From: Lobosporangium transversale
Taxonomy: Eukaryota
DNA: 64,000 bases
Direction of reading: 5' to 3'
Assembly (NCBI RefSeq): GCF_002105155.1
Contig: NW_019029006.1
Coordinates: 186,001 to 250,000 of the forward strand
The notes under the pieces were generated by a model. That model was not told the DNA's origin. It searched no databases and saw nothing but the letters and a program-made list of their open reading frames with translations. The translations under genes and the position numbers were made by a program. Positions 24,675 to 48,794 of this stretch are shown piece after piece; within the stretch, counting starts at the first letter, position 1; every line of letters starts with the position of its first letter.

Positions 24675-27018
<2,344 letters not shown>

Positions 27019-33365: not shown

Positions 33366-34254
33366 ACTCAGAGCGGTGTGGGTCAGATTATCATCGCATG
33401 ATTGAAAAAGAGTGAACACAAAGCTCCTACTTGTAATTATCCCATTACTCCATTTTCTTTTTTCCTTCTTTTTTATTTTTACTATCAACCTGTCCTATAT
33501 ATACTTTACTTGGTGTTCTTGTGCTGGTCGTGCTTTATGTAAGGCATGTTTTATGTTTGCCGTGCTCGTAAATGACCATCGCTTTACACGTGAATACGAC
33601 ACTTGTTTCCACAATTTGGTAGCCATTGATAATACCACCAAAGGGAAAAAAGCGCTTCGGAGAAGGAGCACTTCAGAATGAATGTATACATACTTGAAAA
33701 TGTTTATTGAAGCACAGTTTAATATGCCTTTAGAGACATCTAGCTGGACCCACATTCAATATTAAGCAGATCTGTTCTCATGATGATGACGCGAAATGAT
33801 TTTATTTTTAAAGGTTGACGACTTTGGCAAAATTTGTTGTGTATCAATTGAGCACAATCCTGGCTAGTGAGCGAAAATGTGAAAATGGACTAACATAAAG
33901 AACGGAGAATGTTCTACTTTAAGTTCTATACACGTACACGTTGAATGAGTTGAGTGGGTTGGAGGGACGTTTATCTGTCACAAATCGAAGTTGTCAGCAT
34001 AAATACAAAAGATGGGTACAAACAAGACACAGCTTGTTTTTTTTAGCCTCAGACAAAAAAAAACTTTTTTGGTTCCTGGTCGTGGCACCCATATCTCTCT
34101 CGGACCAATTATCGAGCCCTACTTTTTTGACCCCCTCTCTTCTTTTTCTTCTCTCTCTTTCTTTCTTTTCTTTTTTTCTTTTTTTATTCACACACTCCAT
34201 TCTTCTCATTCCTTTCCCCTCCACCTCCCTCCGATTGTGTCTATTCTTGTCGTC

Positions 34255-34701
34255 ATGGAGCAACTCCTCAAGTCACCTCAGGACTTTTTTATTGATTTTG
34301 CTAGGAACTTCGGTGTCCTCGCAGCTCCTTATGTCGACCCTCTCGAGGCGGCAGTGAGGGGCCAGCTGGAGAAGCTTTTCCCCACAGCGGTTCAGCATGT
34401 TGACCGGTTCCTGAGTGCGGTAGAATCGCCCTTGGCAGTTCAAAATCTTCCATTGATGAATGGATTTCATGTATTTTTGATCGCAACCGCGTATTTGGTG
34501 GTTGTCTTTTTGGGAATGCAGATCATGAAACATTTTGAACGATTTGAGGTCAAGACTTTTTCATTGCTTCACAACTTTGTCCTGGTTTCAATCAGTGCTT
34601 ACATGTGCGGAGGAGTTCTTTATGAGGCTTACAAGTCCAACTATGGATTGTTTGAGAACTTAGCGGACCACTCTAGCAAGGGATTGCCTGTAAGTATCCG
34701 T

Positions 34702-34739
<38 letters not shown>

Positions 34740-34814
34740 TTTTCCCAAATGGATCCTTTTCTTCTTTTTTGAGTTTATGAGCAAAAGAAACACGTATGCA
34801 CCTTGATACATTCG

Positions 34815-34848
<34 letters not shown>

Positions 34849-35837
34849 ATCTGCACACAATTCGTTCTCAACTGTACCATATTATTCAAGTTACGAATTG
34901 ACACCTGAAAATAATGCAGCGGGAAGGAATTAGGGAGGGAATATGCTTTCAACAGAAAAAAGACAAAAAAAACTTTGTACTCCCACACTTTTCGCATGAT
35001 TCATGAACAAGAGTATAGCAATGCGCTGACAGGAACTATGCCACGGAACTTGAGCATTTTTTGCATCTGGAAAAAAAAAATGTCTAATAAGCAAATAAGC
35101 ATGCGCACGCTTACAAACCGGCGTATGTACAATTTGAGTCCACGACAGACTTGACAAAACACATGTCTAATTTATTTTAACCTCCTTACATCTAGATGGC
35201 CAAGATGATCTGGCTCTTTTACTTTTCCAAGATCATGGAGTTTGTTGACACGATTATCATGGTCCTCAAGAAGAACAACCGCCAGATCTCGTTCTTGCAC
35301 GTCTATCACCACTGCTCCATCTTTACGATCTGGTGGCTGGTCACTTTGGTTGCCCCCAACGGTGAAGGTAAAAAAAAAAATAACAAGATGCAAATGGCGT
35401 GTACTTGGTGTTTCATAATGAATAATGAAACCCCGCATATTTCTGTTGGAATGTTGGTCATTTCTTCTGAACTAAAATATCAACCTCAAAATCAACCTAA
35501 ATCAATAATAGCCTACTTCTCTGCCGCATTGAACTCCTTCATTCATGTTATTATGTACGGCTATTACTTCCTTTCAGCTCTTGGCTTCAAGCAGGTTTCC
35601 TTCATTAAGTTCTACATCACTCGCTCACAGATGACTCAATTCTGCCTGATGATGATTCAGGCCTCGTGGGACATGTATTCCATGAAGGTTTTGGGTCGTC
35701 CTGGATATCCCTTCTTTATCACTGCTCTTCTGTGGGTCTACATGTGGACCATGCTTGGTCTTTTCTACAACTTTTACAGGAAGAACGCCAAGCAGGCCAA
35801 GCAGGCCAAGCAGGCCAAAGCAAAGAAGTTGCAGTAA
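34255..35837 (+). CDS. GLELO: Delta-6 PUFA elongase (GLELO type); exons 34255-34689, 35196-35367, 35512-35837
   Basis: ELO motifs KIMEFVDT, FLHVYHH, NSFIHVIMYGYY and TRSQMTQF, plus an ER-retention-like KKLQ end. The N-terminus (AAPYVDPLEAA..AVESPLA) matches Mortierella GLELO as I recall it. Confidence 0.95.
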
Positions 35838-38225: not shown

Positions 38226-41153
38226 AAACAGTAGAAAAAATGGAGAAAAGAACCTCTATCTTTATACAAACAATTGAAGAAGTCTTGACTACACCCTCAT
38301 TAAGGCCAACTAAAAAAAAAAAAAAAAAAAAAAAAAAAACATGCTTGGAAATATGAACGTTGGAGTGTCTATTCTTTTTGCTATTTTATTCATCGCCCAG
38401 GTGAAGAAGAATTGCATATATTCTTCTGATACAAAATGTATTATCTGCTTTTCGTCTCTGCTTGTCAAGAGGGTCTTCTAGTAAACAATGGCACAAATAT
38501 TCAGGTGCTTATTCTTGTGCATTTATGAACTAATTTGTCTCTTTACAAATGCTCCGTTTCTATCGCCCACGCGCTATTAGTCGAAAATCCAGAAGGTGCA
38601 GTTGTTTGATGCTAACGACGTTCAAAAAAAAAGAAAAGCAATTATGAATAAGCAACAACCAGATATTGATAGTAAACGGTAGCAATAATTATGAACCAGA
38701 AGCCTTACGGTCTGTCCGCGTTTCGTGCCCGTGAGGCGGTAGTCGCGCTCCATCATGATTCTGTCCCAGCGGTCAAGGCCGTATCTTGTAGGCTACAAAA
38801 TAAAATACATAGTGAATGTAAATGAAATGTCCAAAAAAAAAAGAAAAATCCGTGCTGCTTTTCCTCATCCATTGAACAGACTTATATGGGAAGGGACCAA
38901 TGATACACCAAAAAAAAGGTGCCGCATCGTGTAGAGTAAATATGGCTATTGTAGATAGTCCATGTCTAAACGTTGTATCCTCTGGCTCCAGTACATAATG
39001 ATCTATCTTTTTTTTCCCTTTTCTTTGCTGCGATTGTCTTCTTTGGATCTTGCTCTGTTACCTGTCCCTCGTTGACACTGGTCTTGAGCTTGTGGAAGAG
39101 AATTCCCGAAGCTCCAAAAAATCCGGTAATCAAACTATATTTTTCAATTAATTGTGAATCAAATGGAGAGTGTTAATTCAGAATCTGGAACTCGAATGGG
39201 TCTTTACTAATCTGATTATGAAGAAGTTCTTTATATTTTTTTGTTACCCAAGAGGAATGAAGGCCTCAAATGGAACTGGCATATTCGGATGTGATTACAG
39301 TGGCGAAGGGGAGAATAACTAAATAATTAAATAAATACGGATGACAACTTTGAAAGGATATGATGTCTCTGAAGATCGGGTCAGTTTCGGTTGTAGCTCT
39401 AGTACAATGGAAGACTCAAATTACGTCATAGAAATAGATGGGAGTCGAGATCAGCTGATTTATTGCTCTGAACACCTCTCACTATCATTGTATCGATTAC
39501 TCTCTCTTCTTTCCTTTCCCCTCTTTGGTTCAGTTGGTGCAGTATAACTGGCGAGATATCCTCTCGAGAGAGAGCCCTGAGTCGAATTCAACGCGCGCAA
39601 GTGAGAAAGTTGGTTGAGGAAAGAGGTAACAGAGAGGATGTTTATGGGACGGCTGGCATGAAGAATTTTATCAAGATGGCGAAGACTGCAATTAAAGAGC
39701 TCTACGAACATGGCGGAAGGTGTATCGAGAATCTAATTTGGTTATCAGAACCACAATCGTGGCGAGGAGACTAGCGCCATGTTGAACATCAAAGCCGTCG
39801 TAGATCCTTAACACCACATATGTATATGTGCTTGCAAGGCATTTTATTCCTGTCGTAGTTAGGGCGCGGACAAGAAAAAAGGACATTGTCGCCTATGTCC
39901 ACATCAATAGAGTACTCTTACCTTAGTGTAGAAAACGATTTAACTAGCAACTGAAGGGTTAGCAATCGTTAGAATATCACTTATAAACCTTATACATGCA
40001 ACATTTAAATTGAATGCCAAAGTCTTCGCTTTTCTTTCCTTTTCGTATAAAAATTTATTGGTTTTATGTGTTGGTATTTCTACACGCGCACGGAGAGATG
40101 GCTTTGAGAAGTGCTTCTAACTGATATTCATGCTCCTTCCAGACCATAATCTTTTTGTTACGTCCTAGGGTTTGGGGGTGCACCCAAAAGGGATACTTTC
40201 ATTTTAATTCATAATATCAGATAAGTTAGTAACGCCTATGGTGGGGCCTAATAAAAGGTCCCCACCTAGCAACCAAATAATAAACTCTCGATCTCCTTGA
40301 CATACCAGCCTTCAGAAAAAAACCCAGCTTGTGGTCGTATCTTCAGCATTACCACCAGCGGTTTTATATAAATTTTATATATTCTTCTGAGGATATAGCG
40401 AAGATGAAATAGCATATGATATCTTTTCAGCCCTTCCGAACGAGTCGATACAAAGGAATGAAGGGACGAGACGGAAGTGTATCCCCATAGAAGAAACTGA
40501 TATTTGCTGTCCTTGGTGGTTATTTTGCACCGTTCTGTAATTTTAGCCTGTTTACCACAATATCTGGAGTGGTGTCGAAAACCGGCCGAAACAAAAGACA
40601 GAAGCTTAAACACGCCGGCATACGGAAATGTCTGTATGTAACGAGAGGAGACCATTGGTCAAAAAATTCGGGTGTTCATACAGTAGAAATTTCCTGTCCT
40701 CTTTGCGGTAGAGAGGATTGGGTACGAGCCTACTTGATTGGTGCATTGAGAACGACATGACTCTAATACTTCTTTGCAAAAGAAACCTGCCTCTGTTCAC
40801 ATACGTCCATTGTATGCAATTCAACCCAAAGGTACTCACACCAGAAATATATATATATCCCGCATGATTGGTGACATGCCTGGAGCAACGGACACATGCC
40901 ATGAAAGATAGAGTCCTAGCCTTGACACAATAACTGTTGCTATGTGGACTCTTGCTATGTGGACTCTCTAGAATTACTCTGTGACCACAGAGATATGGGT
41001 CTATCGATCATGCTGTGTTGCCAAGAACTTGAAAAGGTATATAAACTCTTCTTCCTCACACTAAAGTTTCCTTAACACCACTCACATTCTCTCAACACAG
41101 TCTTTCACCGTCTACATCCACAACACTCGAATCACACATAGTCTTTTCACCGC

Positions 41154-41194
41154 TCACTCCAACATATCATCATGAGTGTGATATGTTGGAGTGA
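41154..41194. repeat. Near-perfect 41-bp palindrome with 16-bp arms
   Basis: tcactccaacatatca-tcatgagtg-tgatatgttggagtga. Confidence 0.9.
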
Positions 41195-42114
41195 TTCCCA
41201 ATGGCTTCAATAGACCCAACAAAACCTAGTCCTCCGACTTTTAGCAATGTTTACCAACCCGGATTTATCAAGAGAAGGCAGCAAGATGAGGAAGCAACGG
41301 ATGCAATAAACTAAGGATAGCAACCAATGGAGTCCATTTCAAGCCCATACAGCGGCAACTACTATCACTATTACATACACCAGTCATATACTGGAATAAG
41401 AATCAAGCTTTCAACATCATCAAATGATGTCATGGGACTCCCAAGCGAATGCCGGGACCATGTGTAAGTCTTCATTATTTTATTTATTTTTTTCTTTTGC
41501 TAAACACAGGAGACAAAGTTCTCCTAGGCCAGATTGGTTCCATGGTAGTCACTTCAAAATAACAGTCAGCTTTTTTTTGCTAACCTATTTTCCTATTGTT
41601 TTATATATAGGATTTCTTTCTCTAACTCGATCTATCTTTGTAGGCGCGCTCACTTTTGTCAATGAGTTTATACGCCCAAGAAGTGCCCACCCATCCTGTA
41701 AAGACTTTGTTGGACAAGTTCCTTGTATTATATCAGGCGTATTTGCATCGCAATGTAATGGCAACATATAATTATTCGTAGCCGCCCGAAGGGACCACAA
41801 CGACCGCATTACCTTCAGCCTGTGGATGCAGATGAACTGCCTCCTTGGATACATTAAGGAGCGATAGCGGCAACAGACATAAGCACAAGAACAGGCACAC
41901 TCACAGTATCGAGTCTTGGTCAGAGCACAGCGGGCAGCGGCATCTTTGTATCATAGCAAAAGGTGGATCAAAGAGGAGGCGTAAGAAGTTTTAATAGTTG
42001 ATTAAATAGTTGGATAACCATATGTGTGTTCGCAAGCTACCACCAAAGTTTAATTACTCCCTAGGTGACGTAATATGGCCAAGATTGTGCTGCACTCGAT
42101 GCTGCAGGTATCTC

Positions 42115-43320
42115 CTAGACGGATCTTCCATTCGAGTCTAAGGGCTGGAGGCATGGAGGTTACCGCTGCTCTAGAAGACACCTGTGCACAATGCCGCAGA
42201 TGTCCTCGGCCGCAAGAATATCTCGGTGAAGACGGGTGTGGCACCTTGGAAAGTACAGCTGCCTCATTGCAACCTACCCCATAAAGCTCTTGCACCCGGA
42301 ATACTTTTTAGAAGCGTAATACTTATCCGCGCCCATGGCAATGTATACTAGTGCATGAACCTGAGTCCAGGAAGCTATGATGCCCACCAGCAGCCTGTTG
42401 CACGTAAAATAAACCTCGGCATCATCTGAGCAAGAATAACTACTTTGTTAGTGAAGTACGCCAAATGTCCCGAGTAGGCCAGAAAGTTGGGCTTGAGGGC
42501 GAACTGGCCTGGCCTGATGGCAATGACTATGTAGTTGTCTGGCTGCTGCTTTTGTCCGATACCTCCCCCAACCATCTGATGAAGCTGGTCGGTGACCGCC
42601 GCGAACTCTTCATTCCTAGCTCACTGGCAGTCCCATTGGTACTCCTTGAAGGCTCTCCCATAAAACTGCTGGTGTTGCCCCTCATGGAACTTCAGATACC
42701 CAGTGTAGCTCATAAAGTCTACATTATAGCCATGAAGAGCAGACAAATTGGTCTTGATGTCCTCAACAGTTTGGTTGACTCCTTCTGGCGCTGACTGCTC
42801 CTGTTACCGCAGACATCGACAGAGTTTTAGCGAGGGATGATAAGCCGCCTTTACCTTAACTGCCAAATTGCAGTAAGTCTCGGGTGCAGGTACCCGGGTC
42901 GACGATGAAGGTGATACTGATGGTGTAACGACGATGGTTGCTGCGGACTGCGCTGCAGCAGTAGGGAGAGTAGCAGTAGGGAGAACGATAGTAGGGAGAT
43001 GAACTGCAGTTGCGCGTGAATTGACTTGTCCGACAGCCAACTATATACATTTGCCGTAGATTCAACCAAAAGCTTGATACCTTTGACCCCACATCCCCAG
43101 AGCTGTGAGATATCTCCCTTCATTTCCACCACGATCCGTATTCCTGTCCTACAGCTGAAGTCAGAGGCAACGGCATCGCTTCTTTCCGAAGCCCCTTGAG
43201 ACATACTGCCAACAGCTCTTTCATTTTGTAAGGCAAAAGTTGTAGTCGGAACCCACTCGTCCGTATCCTACCACGAAGAACATATCCTTATTGGTCGTAC
43301 ACTAACATGCAAAACTGCGT

Positions 43321-43357
<37 letters not shown>

Positions 43358-45681
43358 CTCCAACCGGGGCTTACCGCATCGCCGTGGATGTTGGCTGCAT
43401 GGTATCCTTTGGCCTTGGTAAAAGAAGTGCTACCTTAAAAAATATGATCTGTCATTGTTATTGTGATATTGGTAAGGAAAGTGTACCTAGTCATTTACTC
43501 AGTTCTGGAGGTGAATATCAGAAAAATCAATCCTCTGCTTTCTATTAGCTCTGCTCCGCTTGTATAAAAGCCCGTGTTCCATAGGTGCTCCAATATACGT
43601 ATTGTAGAGCAAGCCTTCTGCTTGAGGATGTGAAAAGTAAGAGTCACCAAAAGTTATATGGAAAGTTGTTACTTTTGCACTGTATTCTTTATTGGAATAC
43701 CAACTAGCAATACCCTGCTTGGGGAAGTAGTTCAGGCTTCAAGCTTCCGAATACTATGGCGTTAAACAATAATGTCAGATAACGAAGCGACAACTGTAAA
43801 ATACTTGCGATATGCTATGATGCCATAGTCGATCTTATAGGAGTAATATCTCTTAACTTGATATTGGCTTCAGATGAGGAGTTGATAGCCTGAAATTTAA
43901 GTATATGGTCCACCGCCGTATCTTCTACAAAAGCTGATACTTAGATCATAAAGTTGAGTCTCTGCTGTCGATATCCAATGTCTAATCTAAAAATGTCATA
44001 TGATATTTGGTGACTCTTACTTTTCACATCCTCAAGCAGAAGGCTTGCTCTACAATACGTATATTGGAGCACCTATGGAACACGGGCTTTTATACAAGCG
44101 GAGCAGAGCTAATAGAAAGCAGAGGATTGATTTTTCTGATATTCACCTCCAGAACTGAGTAAATGACTAGGTACACTTTCCTTACCAATATCACAATAAC
44201 AATGACAGATCATATTTTTTAAGGTAGCACTTCTTTTACCAAGGCCAAAGGATACCATGCAGCCAACATCCACGGCGATGCGGTAAGCCCCGGTTGGAGT
44301 ATTAAAAAAAAAAAAAAAATTAAAACTCACTCTTTGCGTGTTAGTGTACGTCTCTTTGATGATGATTGAGCAGGATTCTGAGGTCTTTGTCTGGGTGCTT
44401 TCCACTGGTGCACCTTCATTGCTTTAGGTAGGGGACGCTGCGCCCGCCGTATCTGGACTTTACATCGTACCTTGACTTTGGCGTCGCCGTCGCCTGATTG
44501 TTATGTTGGTCGGCCGGCCCAGTCACGGTCCGGTAACGGTTATACTTGAACCGTTTAGCAAAGCAGACTTCGTGCCTGCCAATCTACTATCGTAAGCAAT
44601 ATGTGGCCGCGAGTAATGACTATCGGCAGCACTTAAAAGGATGTTATTTACCTCGACCTCGTGCGCCTGCCGCAACTGTGTCGTTCTATGCTGTTGCCTG
44701 CACAGTCCTTGGTACCAGGAGCTGAGTAATACATAATCAAAATGGACTGCTGGGCCGAGTGATAGCCCGTAAGAGGAGCTGGTGTTTGCTTGAGCTCGAT
44801 GAACACTCGCTTTGAAGTTTCAAAAATCTATTGCGTTTGGTTCCCTCGTCTGACCTCAAATACTCCTAGACAAAGCCCTCTGCATCTGTATGATAATAAA
44901 ATCATTGAATGCTGACAGATTAGTAAATGCCGGCAATAGCAATATACGAGAGATATAATTGTCTTTTTATGATGCTCAAATTGGTAGCAAGCGAGTGATG
45001 GTACATTACGTGTATAGTTATTCAGACTAACAACACACAGGGCTACCAGTTGCTAACGTGTAACGCTCAGTGATAGGAGCACTTGGTCCAGATTTTAGAT
45101 AAGGGCTTTACGTCTCGGGATCATCCACCAGATCGTTTGGATACCTTCGTACTCCAAAGCACCGCGGTCCCTAGTAAGGCACACATCGCCTTTCATATAC
45201 TCCCCTGCCATCTCAAGATCCGCTTCCAAGGAACAAATATCAACGCTCCGGCCTTTGGCCTCAAGATTAGCTGCCACTGCTCCCTTCTGTCGGTTTCTCC
45301 ACTCGAACCCTCGGTTAGGATGTCTCTTGGTATCCAAATGATACTTTTTCTGAATACTATAGTCTTGGTCGCACCGGCCTTGGAATGTTCGTATATAATC
45401 CTTCGCTTTTTTCAATGATACCGAGCGTGATCGGTCCCGTTCTGTATGAGTTTGCTCTTTCACTAGAGCTTGGCCGCCATCAAATAACAGTACTGAGTTG
45501 GAGGGATCCAGGGCCTCACCGAATCCTTCCACCACAGCTTGATGTGCCTGGACTGCCGCATGAGTCGAATACGCCATCCTTATAAGGCTGTAAAAAGCCC
45601 CTTGTGGTTCCACAGGCAGCACGGCATCTGGCGGGCCATAGCCTTTTTTCTTCACTTTACTTAATGAGTTGGCACTCCCAT
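42115..45681 (-). pseudogene. Decayed XPG/FEN1-like nuclease + TnpB/Fanzor-like RuvC nuclease gene (copy B), interrupted by an inverted repeat
   Basis: 5' part: MGV start at 45681, ..LLFDG..KEQTHTER.., EADLEMA..DVCLTRD, H3TH-like QLVALCVVSLNNYTRNVPSL. 3' part: IKLL/LNLRQMYIVGC (RuvC-I-like), NLAVKVKAAYHP, MVGGGIG, GADKYYASKKYSGC (RuvC-II/Zn), PRCHTRLHRDILAAEDI (RuvC-III), CLQP. Many stops and frameshifts; GT-AG introns at 44947-44886 and 42443-42361. Confidence 0.75.
43296..44350. repeat. Long inverted repeat: 298-bp arms (43354-43651 and 44006-44303), 354-bp spacer, outer poly(T)/poly(A) and diverged outer extensions
   Basis: Arm 1 (aatactccaaccggggcttaccg...gagtcaccaaa) is the reverse complement of arm 2 (tttggtgactc...cggtaagccccggttggagtatt), with no mismatch seen by eye. 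The outer cgtacactaac / gttagtgtacg segments also pair. Confidence 0.95.
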
Positions 45682-46274
45682 TGTCCAATCATTTCTTTTC
45701 TAGTGCCGCTAGAGTGCACTAATCGATATACAGAAGTAGAGAGTAGGGTAGCGAATAATAGCTTCAGATGATAGATGGGAGCAACGTTGAGAGGAGCTGT
45801 AGAGCGTGAGTCAAACTTTTTGCTGGGCAAACTATAGCGCAAAAGAGTAAGTGAGAATAAGATGTGAGTCCACACACCAAGAGATTTTATATAGTTTCTT
45901 GTATTAATGAATATGCAGCTTTTATTGATGAACATACGGCTTTTACCAAAGAACATAAATCTTGATATTCAGGCAGCGTGAGGATGACCTAGAGGAGAGC
46001 CATCCTTTAAAATAAATAGGAAAAAAATAAATAAAATAAATAAAAGTGTGTATTCACCAGAATGACAAGCTCAACAGGGGAAAAGTTCCTTCTACTTTGG
46101 AGCACGTCATGGACGCGGCATGCAAATTAGTCTTCAGTAAACTATATAAAATTTCCTGGTTCGACTATAACTGAATTCCTTTGCAGTTACTTGGCTCCTC
46201 TATCTCGAGTAATGCTAGGGTCTTGGCACGCGCTGTACGAAGAATACTGGTTTTTTTTTTTTTTTTTTTTTTTT

Positions 46275-47110
46275 TTGGAAATAGGTAGTTCGCTATTGGC
46301 AGAGCGGATAGCCACGGGCATTATTAGCTATGCTGCGGCCAACTATCACATCTCTGTGTATGGATACTTTGCACATGGGATTAAAAGCCGGTGAATACCA
46401 ACTTGCTCTACAAATTCCTGGTAGGTTAGATACTTCTTAGAGCTGTAGTATTCATTCACAGCATCAACAATGTATTCAAGGAACCTGACCTGAAATAAGC
46501 GTAAATATTAGCTGGTAGCATTGAAAGCGCCTACTGCTCGAATGAAGTAAGATTGGAACGACTCATGCGATGAGGGAAATTCAGCCTTGGCCTACAGCAA
46601 TTACGACTTTTTTAGTCTCTTTCCTTTCACTCCAATTGAGCCACTAGCAATCTGGAGCAAACGAATGGCAGCCTATTCACCCATGTCCACTTCGTATTCC
46701 ACCGGTGCCTTTTGATAGATCTTTTCTTGTAGAAGGAACTAAGGCGTGTTTCCGCTTCTACAAGCTTACTAATGTAACCTTCGATGCTTGCTATATTGCC
46801 CTGGGGGGGGGGGGGGGGAAGATAAGATGCTTTTAATACCGTTGGTGGGTTCTGTAGAGCCATCAATGACCGCTGCTTTCCTTCCTTCTACCCCAGTTTC
46901 AGTGCCTTTTGTTTGACAGCCAGGTTGTAGAACTTGGACTGCATGGTCGCGCTATTGAGGCTTCCAGTACTTGGTAACAAAGCATTGGCGCCAATCACAC
47001 GCGCTTTTCCTAGCTCGAGGACCATCTCTTGATGTCTCCCGGTTGACATCCCAAGGGTCGAGAACATCTTAGTTGACCTTGGAGCAGAGTCAGTCAGAGC
47101 CGTAACAAAG
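46275..47110 (-). pseudogene. Second decayed TnpB/Fanzor-like RuvC nuclease fragment (copy A, C-terminal part only)
   Basis: VLELGKARVIGANALLP, FYNLAVKQKA, LSSFYKKRSIKRHRW, LLQIASGSIG..KVVIAVG, HESFQSYFIRA | intron | VRFLEYIVDAVNEYYSSKKYLTY, CKVSIHRDVI..ANNARGY. Collinear with copy B; frameshifts and stops present. Confidence 0.78.
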
Positions 47111-48794
47111 CTGATAAAGATTACATTTTCTGGCCCATAAAAAAAACTAATTAATCGCCAGCAATAGGATGGCTCCACCCCGTAACACTGCAAGTTTCTT
47201 TAATTTTTTTTTTTTTTTATATAGTTCCTTAGTAAACGTGTTACTATATCATTCACGTATGCCTGGATATAGTTCTAGAAGCCTCGATTCTTATGATGGG
47301 TGATCAAGATATAGATAGAAAGTATTTTGGATGCTTTTTCTTTTTGATTCTCAGCATCGGTTGCTTCGTTCCTGAACTATTCTGCATCAGATATCAGGAT
47401 AATTCCATTATTTGATACCTTTTTTTTTGTTTGGAGTACAGAAAAATTTGTTTATTAATTTATTTTTGTGCTAATAAATTTCTACACGTTTTTCTTCGGT
47501 CATAATTAACCAAATAAAAAATAATAATCATAATAAAAAAAACGCAGGAAGCAATACAAAAAAAAAATTGCAAAAATAGAAAGGGACAGTCTTTAGTTTG
47601 ACGTTTTAAAGTGTTCGTACTTTACGTTATATTCCTCATTTCCTTAATTGATGAGCGGGTTCATTGTCGCGTAAATAAGGTTTCCCCAAACCGCGAATTA
47701 CAAAAAGAATATGGTTTGTAGTTAATCAAAGGCGAGGAAAAAAGAGGAGAAAGAAGAAGAGGAGAGCAGAGACCTGTGCTGTTCGCTCTTTTTGTAGTCC
47801 TTTTCAATTACAAGAAGTTTATTAAGCAAACAATTTTTATTGAAAAGATCTAACTAAAAAGAGCAAGCAGCACAGATCTTTGGAAGAGAAGAAGAAAACC
47901 CAGACAGATCTTTCATACCGCGAGATTTATTATAATGTGATTTTTTTATTACAAGTATTGAGTTATTGGTTCAATCCTAGATGAATACTCTCTGTAATGA
48001 AATCCCTCTTTGAAGGGACTTTACAAAGAGGCACTATAGCAGTAAAGTAATTTTCTAAAAAAAAAAAAAAAAAAAAAAGTTTGAGTAAATTAACTTCGCT
48101 GGCAAAAACAATCCACAAATATACATCTATTCATTCGTAAACCCAATTCAATCCAACTGATAGAGAGGAACAAGAAGACGTCAATAGAACATTGATTATG
48201 ACGCAAATGAATGCACTCATTGTTGGCTAAAAAAGCCAAGAACCAAGCAAAAGAGGTTCAAAAAAACCTTAAAGCGTCAGTGCTGTTCCTATGAAAACAC
48301 GCAGAAACACAAACCTCAGGGGCGAATATGTGTGGTGACGCTACTTGCTAGAAATAGATAGCTAAACAATGATGAATAGTTTTTTTTATGACGAAGTTTT
48401 GTAATATATGCTGTTCCGAGAAACCAGCCTTATTTAGGAACAAAGAGATTATCAACCGTCCTTATGATTTGAATGTGATACTGAATTAGCCATCACACTC
48501 ATACATGCTCGATGGGATCGCAATGTTAATGGAGTAAAATGCGCCAGTAAATCAGATCGAAAGGCTATCTTGACCTCGGAATCTGTCAACCAACCATTCA
48601 ATGATAAAGCAAGAATGAGATAAATTTTTTTCCAGTGATACCTCCGTCTATCTGAAAAATATAATAAATCATATTATGGTATGAGTCATTAGTAAGCATG
48701 AGAGTGGTATGGATGCAATTAAAACATATGGCTCTTTTATCATAACGGATTGTCGTGGGATTAACGTCTCCTATCAAAGGGTCATTGCCCAACC

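Follow-up and report, generated by a model that had tools for sequence, protein, structure and literature searches.

The minus strand of a 64,000-nt stretch of the Lobosporangium transversale genome (NCBI RefSeq assembly GCF_002105155.1, contig NW_019029006.1, positions 186,001 to 250,000; hereafter the window) carries, at 42115..45681, a dead copy of a gene that, judged from its sequence, joined an XPG/FEN1-like nuclease in front to a TnpB/Fanzor RuvC nuclease at the back. Intact relatives of this gene encode single proteins of 1,100–1,300 aa (Mortierellaceae entries), and comparison of the loci gives good support to the view that the fusion family is carried by mobile elements. We consider it fairly probable (about 0.6) that the fusion serves restorative homing, in which the fused 5′ nuclease would resect the cut made by the Fanzor.

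The fossil gene and its intact relatives

An earlier note on this stretch had described a collinear series of motifs on the minus strand, and we found every one of them in its place. The ATG of MGV starts at 45681, FDG at 45484 and EAD at 45226; on the RuvC side, the N of LNLRQ lies at 43062, DKYYASKK at 42327 and HRD at 42228. We scanned the window with a profile built from nine long relatives, using the reversed window as a control, and observed collinear matches on the minus strand at 45604-44759 (142 bits), 43302-43144 (41 bits), 42941-42486 (92 bits) and 42360-42124 (64 bits); the control scored −7 bits at best. These ordered matches bear out the proposed make-up, XPG/FEN1-like in front and TnpB/Fanzor RuvC at the back. 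A Pfam search of 15 window fragments gave a weak TNB match alone (E 0.077).

The 5′ half (44769..45681), with an XPG/FEN1/EXO1-type nuclease domain, retains MGV, FDG..K..R..R and EAD and has two in-frame stops and one frameshift near its start. Its nuclease site is broken, with DRG in place of DSD and NNY in place of NDY. A 62-nt GT-AG intron (44886..44947), at a position conserved in the family, follows the H3TH segment. The 3′ half (42115..43302) corresponds to the WED/RuvC/zinc-finger region of Fanzor1 and contains an 83-nt GT-AG intron (42361..42443) before RuvC-II, again at a family-conserved position. Here the RuvC-I aspartate is changed to N (43062), the RuvC-II glutamate to K (42324), and two zinc cysteines are gone; the RuvC-III HRD is unbroken. 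All these features, as well as a decayed linker (NRYRT.., RYDVK.., MKVHQWK; 44330..44565) of the same clade as the relative P0023, lie on the minus strand. Stops occur in four of the collinear pieces, together with frameshifts, and approximately residues 440-757 of P0023 (∼315 codons) find no match in the window, so that both the death of this copy and the loss of its middle part, as the note had them, stand. We ruled out a chance joining of halves from unrelated elements, since the same proteins are matched in order by the two halves as well as by the linker.

With a 197-aa open stretch of the front part (45098-45688) as the query, a full HMMER scan of 1.84 billion representatives returned 120 relatives at E ≤ 0.001, unlike a word-index search with the front fragment, which yielded no longer relatives. 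Ten long relatives that were looked up by name all belong to Mortierellaceae. P0023, P0030 and P0109 each have a weak XPG_I match together with a Cas12f1-like_TNB match, and P0023 as a query returned 14 proteins, with the TNB family in seven. No relatives were found in viral contigs and prokaryote genomes. Scanning metagenomes with RuvC-side patterns as seeds provided 56 loci (a first scan with a single-protein query had found no relatives). Both halves are present at 17 of the 56, representing 11 distinct elements, and 34 others end too close upstream to show the front domain.

The ancestor had been supposed to be one intron-containing gene, and the metagenome loci agree with this. Stop-free GT-AG spliced models were obtained at seven of the eight loci modelled, most of which have 4-5 introns. 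All eight motif patterns occur in four models and seven in that of L038; the models of L008 and L023 are without RuvC-II, and L029 gave no model. L051 has a single intron-free open reading frame (ORF) of 1,289 codons with both halves and both active sites, and the sole other match of its protein is an Amoeboaphelidium protein. Both domains, with the D-E-D motifs in place, are thus found in one ORF in L051 as well as in the four spliced models with all motif patterns; an outcome in which the halves are separate genes, or the C-terminal part has no RuvC/TnpB fold, did not arise. The two domains also diverge together among 16 long proteins (Mantel r 0.65, p 0.0002; r 0.53 without an outlier). At L023 (6000-9760), the fused gene stands head to head with a host gene, which from its motifs we take to be Rad4/XPC-like, and no transposase match was seen there.

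Two nuclease domains in a transposon with a structured tail

In the front domain, the acidic residues at the seven FEN1-type positions are retained in 64/65, 72/74, 77/77, 79/79, 74/77, 76/78 and 72/73 of the covering rows of 81 aligned relatives, and the K/R/R of the basic gateway in 74/76, 73/77 and 73/77. The register comes from a comparison of the family profile with PDB sequences, where FEN1 is matched with E 6e-9; the FEN1 residue numbers of the catalytic positions are those that we presume. In the predicted whole-chain model of P0023 (mean pLDDT 74.9), residues 2-312 match EXO1 with Z 22.5 (rmsd 3.3, 278 aligned) and FEN1 with Z 21.6; XRN also appears, with Z 16. For the front, a FEN1/EXO1 fold is predicted, including the helical arch and H3TH. 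As for the subfamily, EXO1 and FEN1 are tied by fold, and viral clusters are nearest by features. The nearest Atlas clusters of both halves are mostly from giant viruses (Nucleocytoviricota), a likeness that we treat as a lead only; in the viral library, XPG-family nucleases and Fanzor-like ‘transposases’ occur as separate proteins. By eye, the same front motifs can be recognized in accessible FZ1 rows from Amoeboaphelidium (an aphelid), Synchytrium (a chytrid) and Tilletiopsis (a basidiomycete).

The relatives also carry the RuvC D...[TS][TS]xx-C4 zinc finger...RD arrangement that has decayed in the window copy. Their RuvC D-E-D is kept in 20/20, 9/10 and 11/11 rows, and the catalytic E lies about six residues ahead of the zinc finger (NE[YF][YF]TSxKC in 9/10 rows). 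Foldseek matched the P0023 model with SpuFz1 over REC/WED/RuvC (E 3.4e-6, 761 columns), and SpuFz1 was again the top fold match of a weak model of the Fanzor half. Against PDB sequences, the family profile matched TranC (E 3e-4) and Fanzor2 (E 3e-3). By predicted fold, the back half is Fanzor1-like. P0023 is KAG0303305, which the accessible part of Supplementary Table 1 of Saito 2023 (PMC10432273) classes as FZ1; this entry and the SpuFz1 match both uphold the TnpB/Fanzor-like nature that had been proposed for the C-terminal part.

The mobile setting suspected in the earlier note was recovered in metagenome contigs, where the gene sits inside elements with terminal inverted repeats (TIRs). L025-L027 share an element of ∼7.4 kb (99% identity) with 25-bp TIRs, for whose insertion sites we have three left flanks (L025-L027) and four right flanks (L028 included). 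The TIRs match at 24/25 positions in L025-L027 and at 20/22 in L004 and L006; L004-L007 represent a second element family, in which the transposase is shortened. Read from the left, the left end is followed by a MULE-like transposase, which is encoded on the opposite strand, then by the fused gene and a short tail, and the right end closes the element. The exons of L026 hold MDSTH, MVDC, CVFH, NNLAESWH and a SWIM finger, and Pfam gave SWIM over the cut-off in two exons and MULE under the cut-off (E 6e-4). Assembled from exon motifs, and not from a complete spliced model, this putative enzyme has the features of a MULE-like DDE transposase, including CxxH and a SWIM finger. Pieces of it occur at 12 of the 56 loci. 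Three flanks of the 7.4-kb element (L025 1-169, L027 1-209 and L026 7630-9146, compared with L013 100-1733) run on through 18-31 bases without a match and then enter the terminal region of a different MULE-Fanzor family; either elements have nested repeatedly close to related ends, or the contigs are chimeric assemblies.

Downstream of the stop codon, an RTGACG-like motif (relaxed pattern) is present in 35 of 40 tails, and the flanks of near-identical copies part 28 nt past it. The last 100 nt of the element form a small hairpin and a long one, the latter closing at the final base of the element. Folded as single sequences, 15 of 25 tails, a set that includes two window remnants without a fold, have z < −2, and the sense strand is the more stable in 19 of 25. 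In a 12-row alignment, both sides have changed in 19 of 35 pairs, which is reached in 0/500 shuffles, and 76.5% of the cells are paired, compared with 31-54% in slid controls. The structure was taken from the single-sequence folds and this tighter alignment; RNAalifold predicted no pairs in a gappy 20-row alignment. A covariance model of the tail hit 41 of the 56 loci on the strand of the gene at E < 0.05, 12 of them by construction, and Rfam gave two weak, chance-level matches and nothing else on 10 loci. The tail is likely an omega-RNA on these sequence grounds; it resembles the Fanzor1 omega-RNA, which includes the TIR according to the accessible text of PMC10432273 and PMC10711439. One tail, L019 2320-2460, has an internally duplicated GTGACG hairpin and still forms one long stem.

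Foldback repeat and neighbouring fragments

In the place of the ∼315 absent codons, the window copy has a foldback repeat of ∼1,055 nt (43296..44350). Its 329-nt arms (43332-43660 and 43997-44325) are 98% complementary, are separated by a 336-nt spacer and extend through poly-T runs to 43296 and 44350. It has no protein match. We rejected the possibility that this is the decayed middle of the gene, because it has no profile match and is multi-copy. Copies elsewhere in the source genome were judged through read contigs, in which the repeat has four to five times the single-copy depth and diverged copies occur elsewhere. Its length is near that of the absent coding stretch, and ∼20 nt of the outer arms read as coding on both sides.

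A second and more decayed copy, comprising the RuvC C-terminal part only and keeping the RuvC-II E, lies at 46233..46953 on the minus strand. A third fragment is found on the plus strand at 41658..41896 (C-terminal tail, RP.YLQP..PW), followed at 42021..42097 by its right-end/omega-RNA-like remnant, which abuts the 3′ end of the main copy. The motif is present in this remnant; the covariance model gave E 3.1 (not significant) and no stable fold was seen (z 0.9). On the minus strand, a remnant SWIM zinc finger from a MULE-like transposase is located at 39819..39914 (tblastn E 1e-5), and a second right-end-like motif, weak and without stable fold, at 39395..39500; the latter is possibly the displaced right end of the main copy. 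Across the window, the tail covariance model gave nothing significant (best E 0.54), and a partner left TIR sought in the window for the two right-end-like motifs was not found. The region reads as a nest of decayed elements.

In run X7, which we guess to be RNA of the same species label, contigs resembling window positions 41841-41899 and 42077-42103 have a depth of 1,172-1,539, and the other listed pieces a depth of <7. These contigs resemble the 3′ end of the third fragment and the right end, one side with 27 nt only. Since neither RNA level nor strand can be read from contigs, we take their depth as no more than a hint of an abundant tail RNA. In another sample, run X6, repeats related to window 40500-48500 differ almost exclusively by C>T and G>A (117 and 98 of 222 differing places), a pattern that resembles repeat-induced point mutation or methylation-driven decay. 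Other short multi-copy repeats in the window occupy 40900-41740, 45842-45879 and 47795-47855. Among them, 41100-41290 and 41570-41740 are joined in several ways in read contigs, which suggests deleted, non-autonomous relatives of the plus-strand fragment. Ordinary host sequence of the window includes a gene at 34003-35834 that from its motifs is presumably fatty-acid-elongase-like, and a long trinucleotide repeat at 25980-26372.

Mode of action, known relatives and significance

The restorative homing that we favour builds on anatomy, namely the single-ORF fusion, the conserved sites, the TIR element, its insertion sites and the covarying hairpin. Such homing is described as a general role of TnpB and Fanzor in the accessible text of PMC13565253. 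The tail would be transcribed into the flank and loaded as omega-RNA, as in other Fanzor1s, and the element would be excised by the MULE-like transposase. RuvC would then cut the emptied allele beside a target-adjacent motif (TAM), for which the GTGACG of the left flank is a candidate. The tethered 5′ nuclease would trim the 5′ strands, which would tip repair away from end-joining and towards gene conversion with the sister chromatid as donor, and the element would be copied back into the emptied site. RNA guidance and the cut-then-resect activity, which the earlier note had envisaged, are what we infer from the sequences.

Several observations weigh against this reading. The front domain is absent where it was expected at L013, L022, L037, L052 and L054, and the 120 hits include many short proteins that have the front only and whose surroundings were not visible. 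The whole-chain model of P0023 has a pTM of 0.48 and a TM-score of 0.41 by target against SpuFz, and the separate model of the Fanzor half is poor (pLDDT 48). The Fanzor DPG at RuvC-I occurs in 1/9 relatives only, the others having DLG, DAG or DGG, mostly DLG or DAG. The tail structure was drawn from the same sequences that were used for the covariation count. Finally, in the accessible accounts of described Fanzors (PMC13565253, PMC10711439), the guide-matched sequence borders on the TAM, which takes in the 5′ target-site duplication (TSD). Here the motif lies 14-15 nt off and no TSD was seen; therefore, the TAM step does not yet close geometrically.

The flanks themselves allow another view. 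Among six readable left flanks, which come from three element families, GTGACG is present in 4/6 and ACG in 6/6, ending 14-15 nt before the element; the motif was noticed in three flanks and then checked in the other three (background ∼3e-4 per position), and the degenerate left end of L008 was positioned by eye. In either orientation, the motif was found within 40 nt in 0/25 distinct right flanks, and no duplication of at least 4 nt was seen in any pairing of six left with nine right flanks. The distance equals that of the Fanzor1 cut in the non-target strand, which the accessible text of PMC10432273 places after base 14-17. The protein might then bind GTGACG, cut 14-15 nt downstream and trim the overhang, the transposon being joined left end first without target duplication, but we regard this as decidedly unlikely. 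The 14-15 nt past GTGACG are different in each left flank and match no sampled right flank; hence, a flank-derived guide does not explain them. Moreover, pairing of flanks in contigs is unreliable (L004 and L006 share the right flank, not the left), and a TSD, which in MULE/MuDR transposons has 8-11 bp, may therefore be hidden. A target preference of the transposase with a hidden TSD is a plainer explanation than cutter-directed insertion. We are just as doubtful of the larger proposal that a MULE-like transposase and the Fanzor1-EXO1/FEN1 fusion form a three-part machine for GTGACG-directed, oriented integration without duplication, in which the fusion would cut 14-15 nt past the motif and trim the ends.

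The front domain may also work on a different substrate, in omega-RNA 5′ maturation, R-loop or flap removal, or the clean-up of transposase hairpins and gaps, with the Fanzor acting as usual. FEN1-family folds act on RNA and flaps besides recessed ends, and the fold search, with EXO1 and FEN1 tied and XRN behind them, suits such roles; however, the covalent tie to the cutter is most simply explained if the domain works at the cut, and we hold this alternative to be unlikely. One could also argue, from the common short front-only database proteins and from chimeric gene models such as P0051, which has WD40 repeats, that the front domain was picked up as a passenger or arose through faulty annotation, and that it plays no part next to the Fanzor. 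This is largely refuted and very improbable, as L051 is an intron-free single ORF, the catalytic residues are near-invariant, the two domains diverge jointly, and the same front motifs are seen in the FZ1 rows of the aphelid, chytrid and basidiomycete.

Compared with Fanzor1 SpuFz1 of Spizellomyces punctatus, as far as the accessible text of PMC10432273 and PMC3627910 describes it, the fusion family shares the RuvC D-E-D, the E six residues before the C4 zinc finger, the fold over ∼750 columns, the gene inside TIRs, the short structured tail including the right TIR, and deleted, non-autonomous copies. It differs in its approximately twofold length, the 310-aa EXO1/FEN1-fold nuclease in front, DLG for DPG, the 4-5 introns of most modelled loci, and a GC-containing flank motif that is not adjacent. 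The Mucorales elements ROr-4, PBl-3 as well as MCi-4 (PMC3627910, accessible part) likewise have Fanzor1 in MuDR/MULE-type TIR elements of early-diverging fungi, but encode no transposase and have 9-bp TSDs, whereas here the gene and transposase exons are arranged head to head, the Fanzor is joined to a second nuclease and a 9-bp TSD was not seen. The CRe-1/2/3 and MCi-2 Fanzor elements, too, insert some way off a fixed motif that lies upstream; according to the same source, a TSD of 7-19 or 11-12 bp makes up the distance there and TIRs are missing from MCi-2A/2D, whereas the present elements possess TIRs and no duplication of the intervening stretch was seen. With the XPG/Rad2 family (EXO1, FEN1, XPG, GEN1 and giant-virus FEN-like proteins), the front shares the fold, the seven acidic and the basic gateway residues and H3TH; it differs in being joined to a transposon Fanzor and has 13-21% identity to solved members.

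The proteins were already catalogued as Fanzor1, while the fusion itself apparently went unremarked. Three of them are listed in the accessible Table S2 of Yoon 2023 (PMC10711439), and one FZ1 row in the accessible part of the Saito 2023 table (PMC10432273) bears the NCBI label ‘Rad2 nuclease’. Jiang 2023 (PMC10530073) states that Fanzors often contain other domains, in a text whose figure S1B was not visible. The term XPG is absent from the accessible Fanzor/TnpB main texts searched and from the searchable supplements of PMC10432273, PMC10711439 and PMC10530073, one PMC10432273 supplement being image-only. Term searches for Fanzor with XPG or Mortierella gave no literature match, subscription papers and Repbase being outside their reach, and Fanzor with EXO1 gave engineering reviews only, judged from the listing.

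End-joining often seals eukaryotic cuts, which would waste a homing cut, and a Fanzor that brings along a nuclease for resection would solve this problem in a natural way. The fusion makes the homing role of Fanzors testable by two point mutants in one protein. Engineers hand-build such cutter-nuclease fusions to steer repair, and this one would be an evolved counterpart. From their sequences, L025-L027 represent a complete candidate system with transposase, fused nuclease, tail RNA, ends and candidate target motif. The one-sided fixed motif, 14-15 nt off, misfits the TAM geometry of described Fanzors and may be the sign of a new way in which cutter and transposase are coupled. If true, the three-part machine would be a eukaryotic parallel to CRISPR-associated transposons, possibly reprogrammable.

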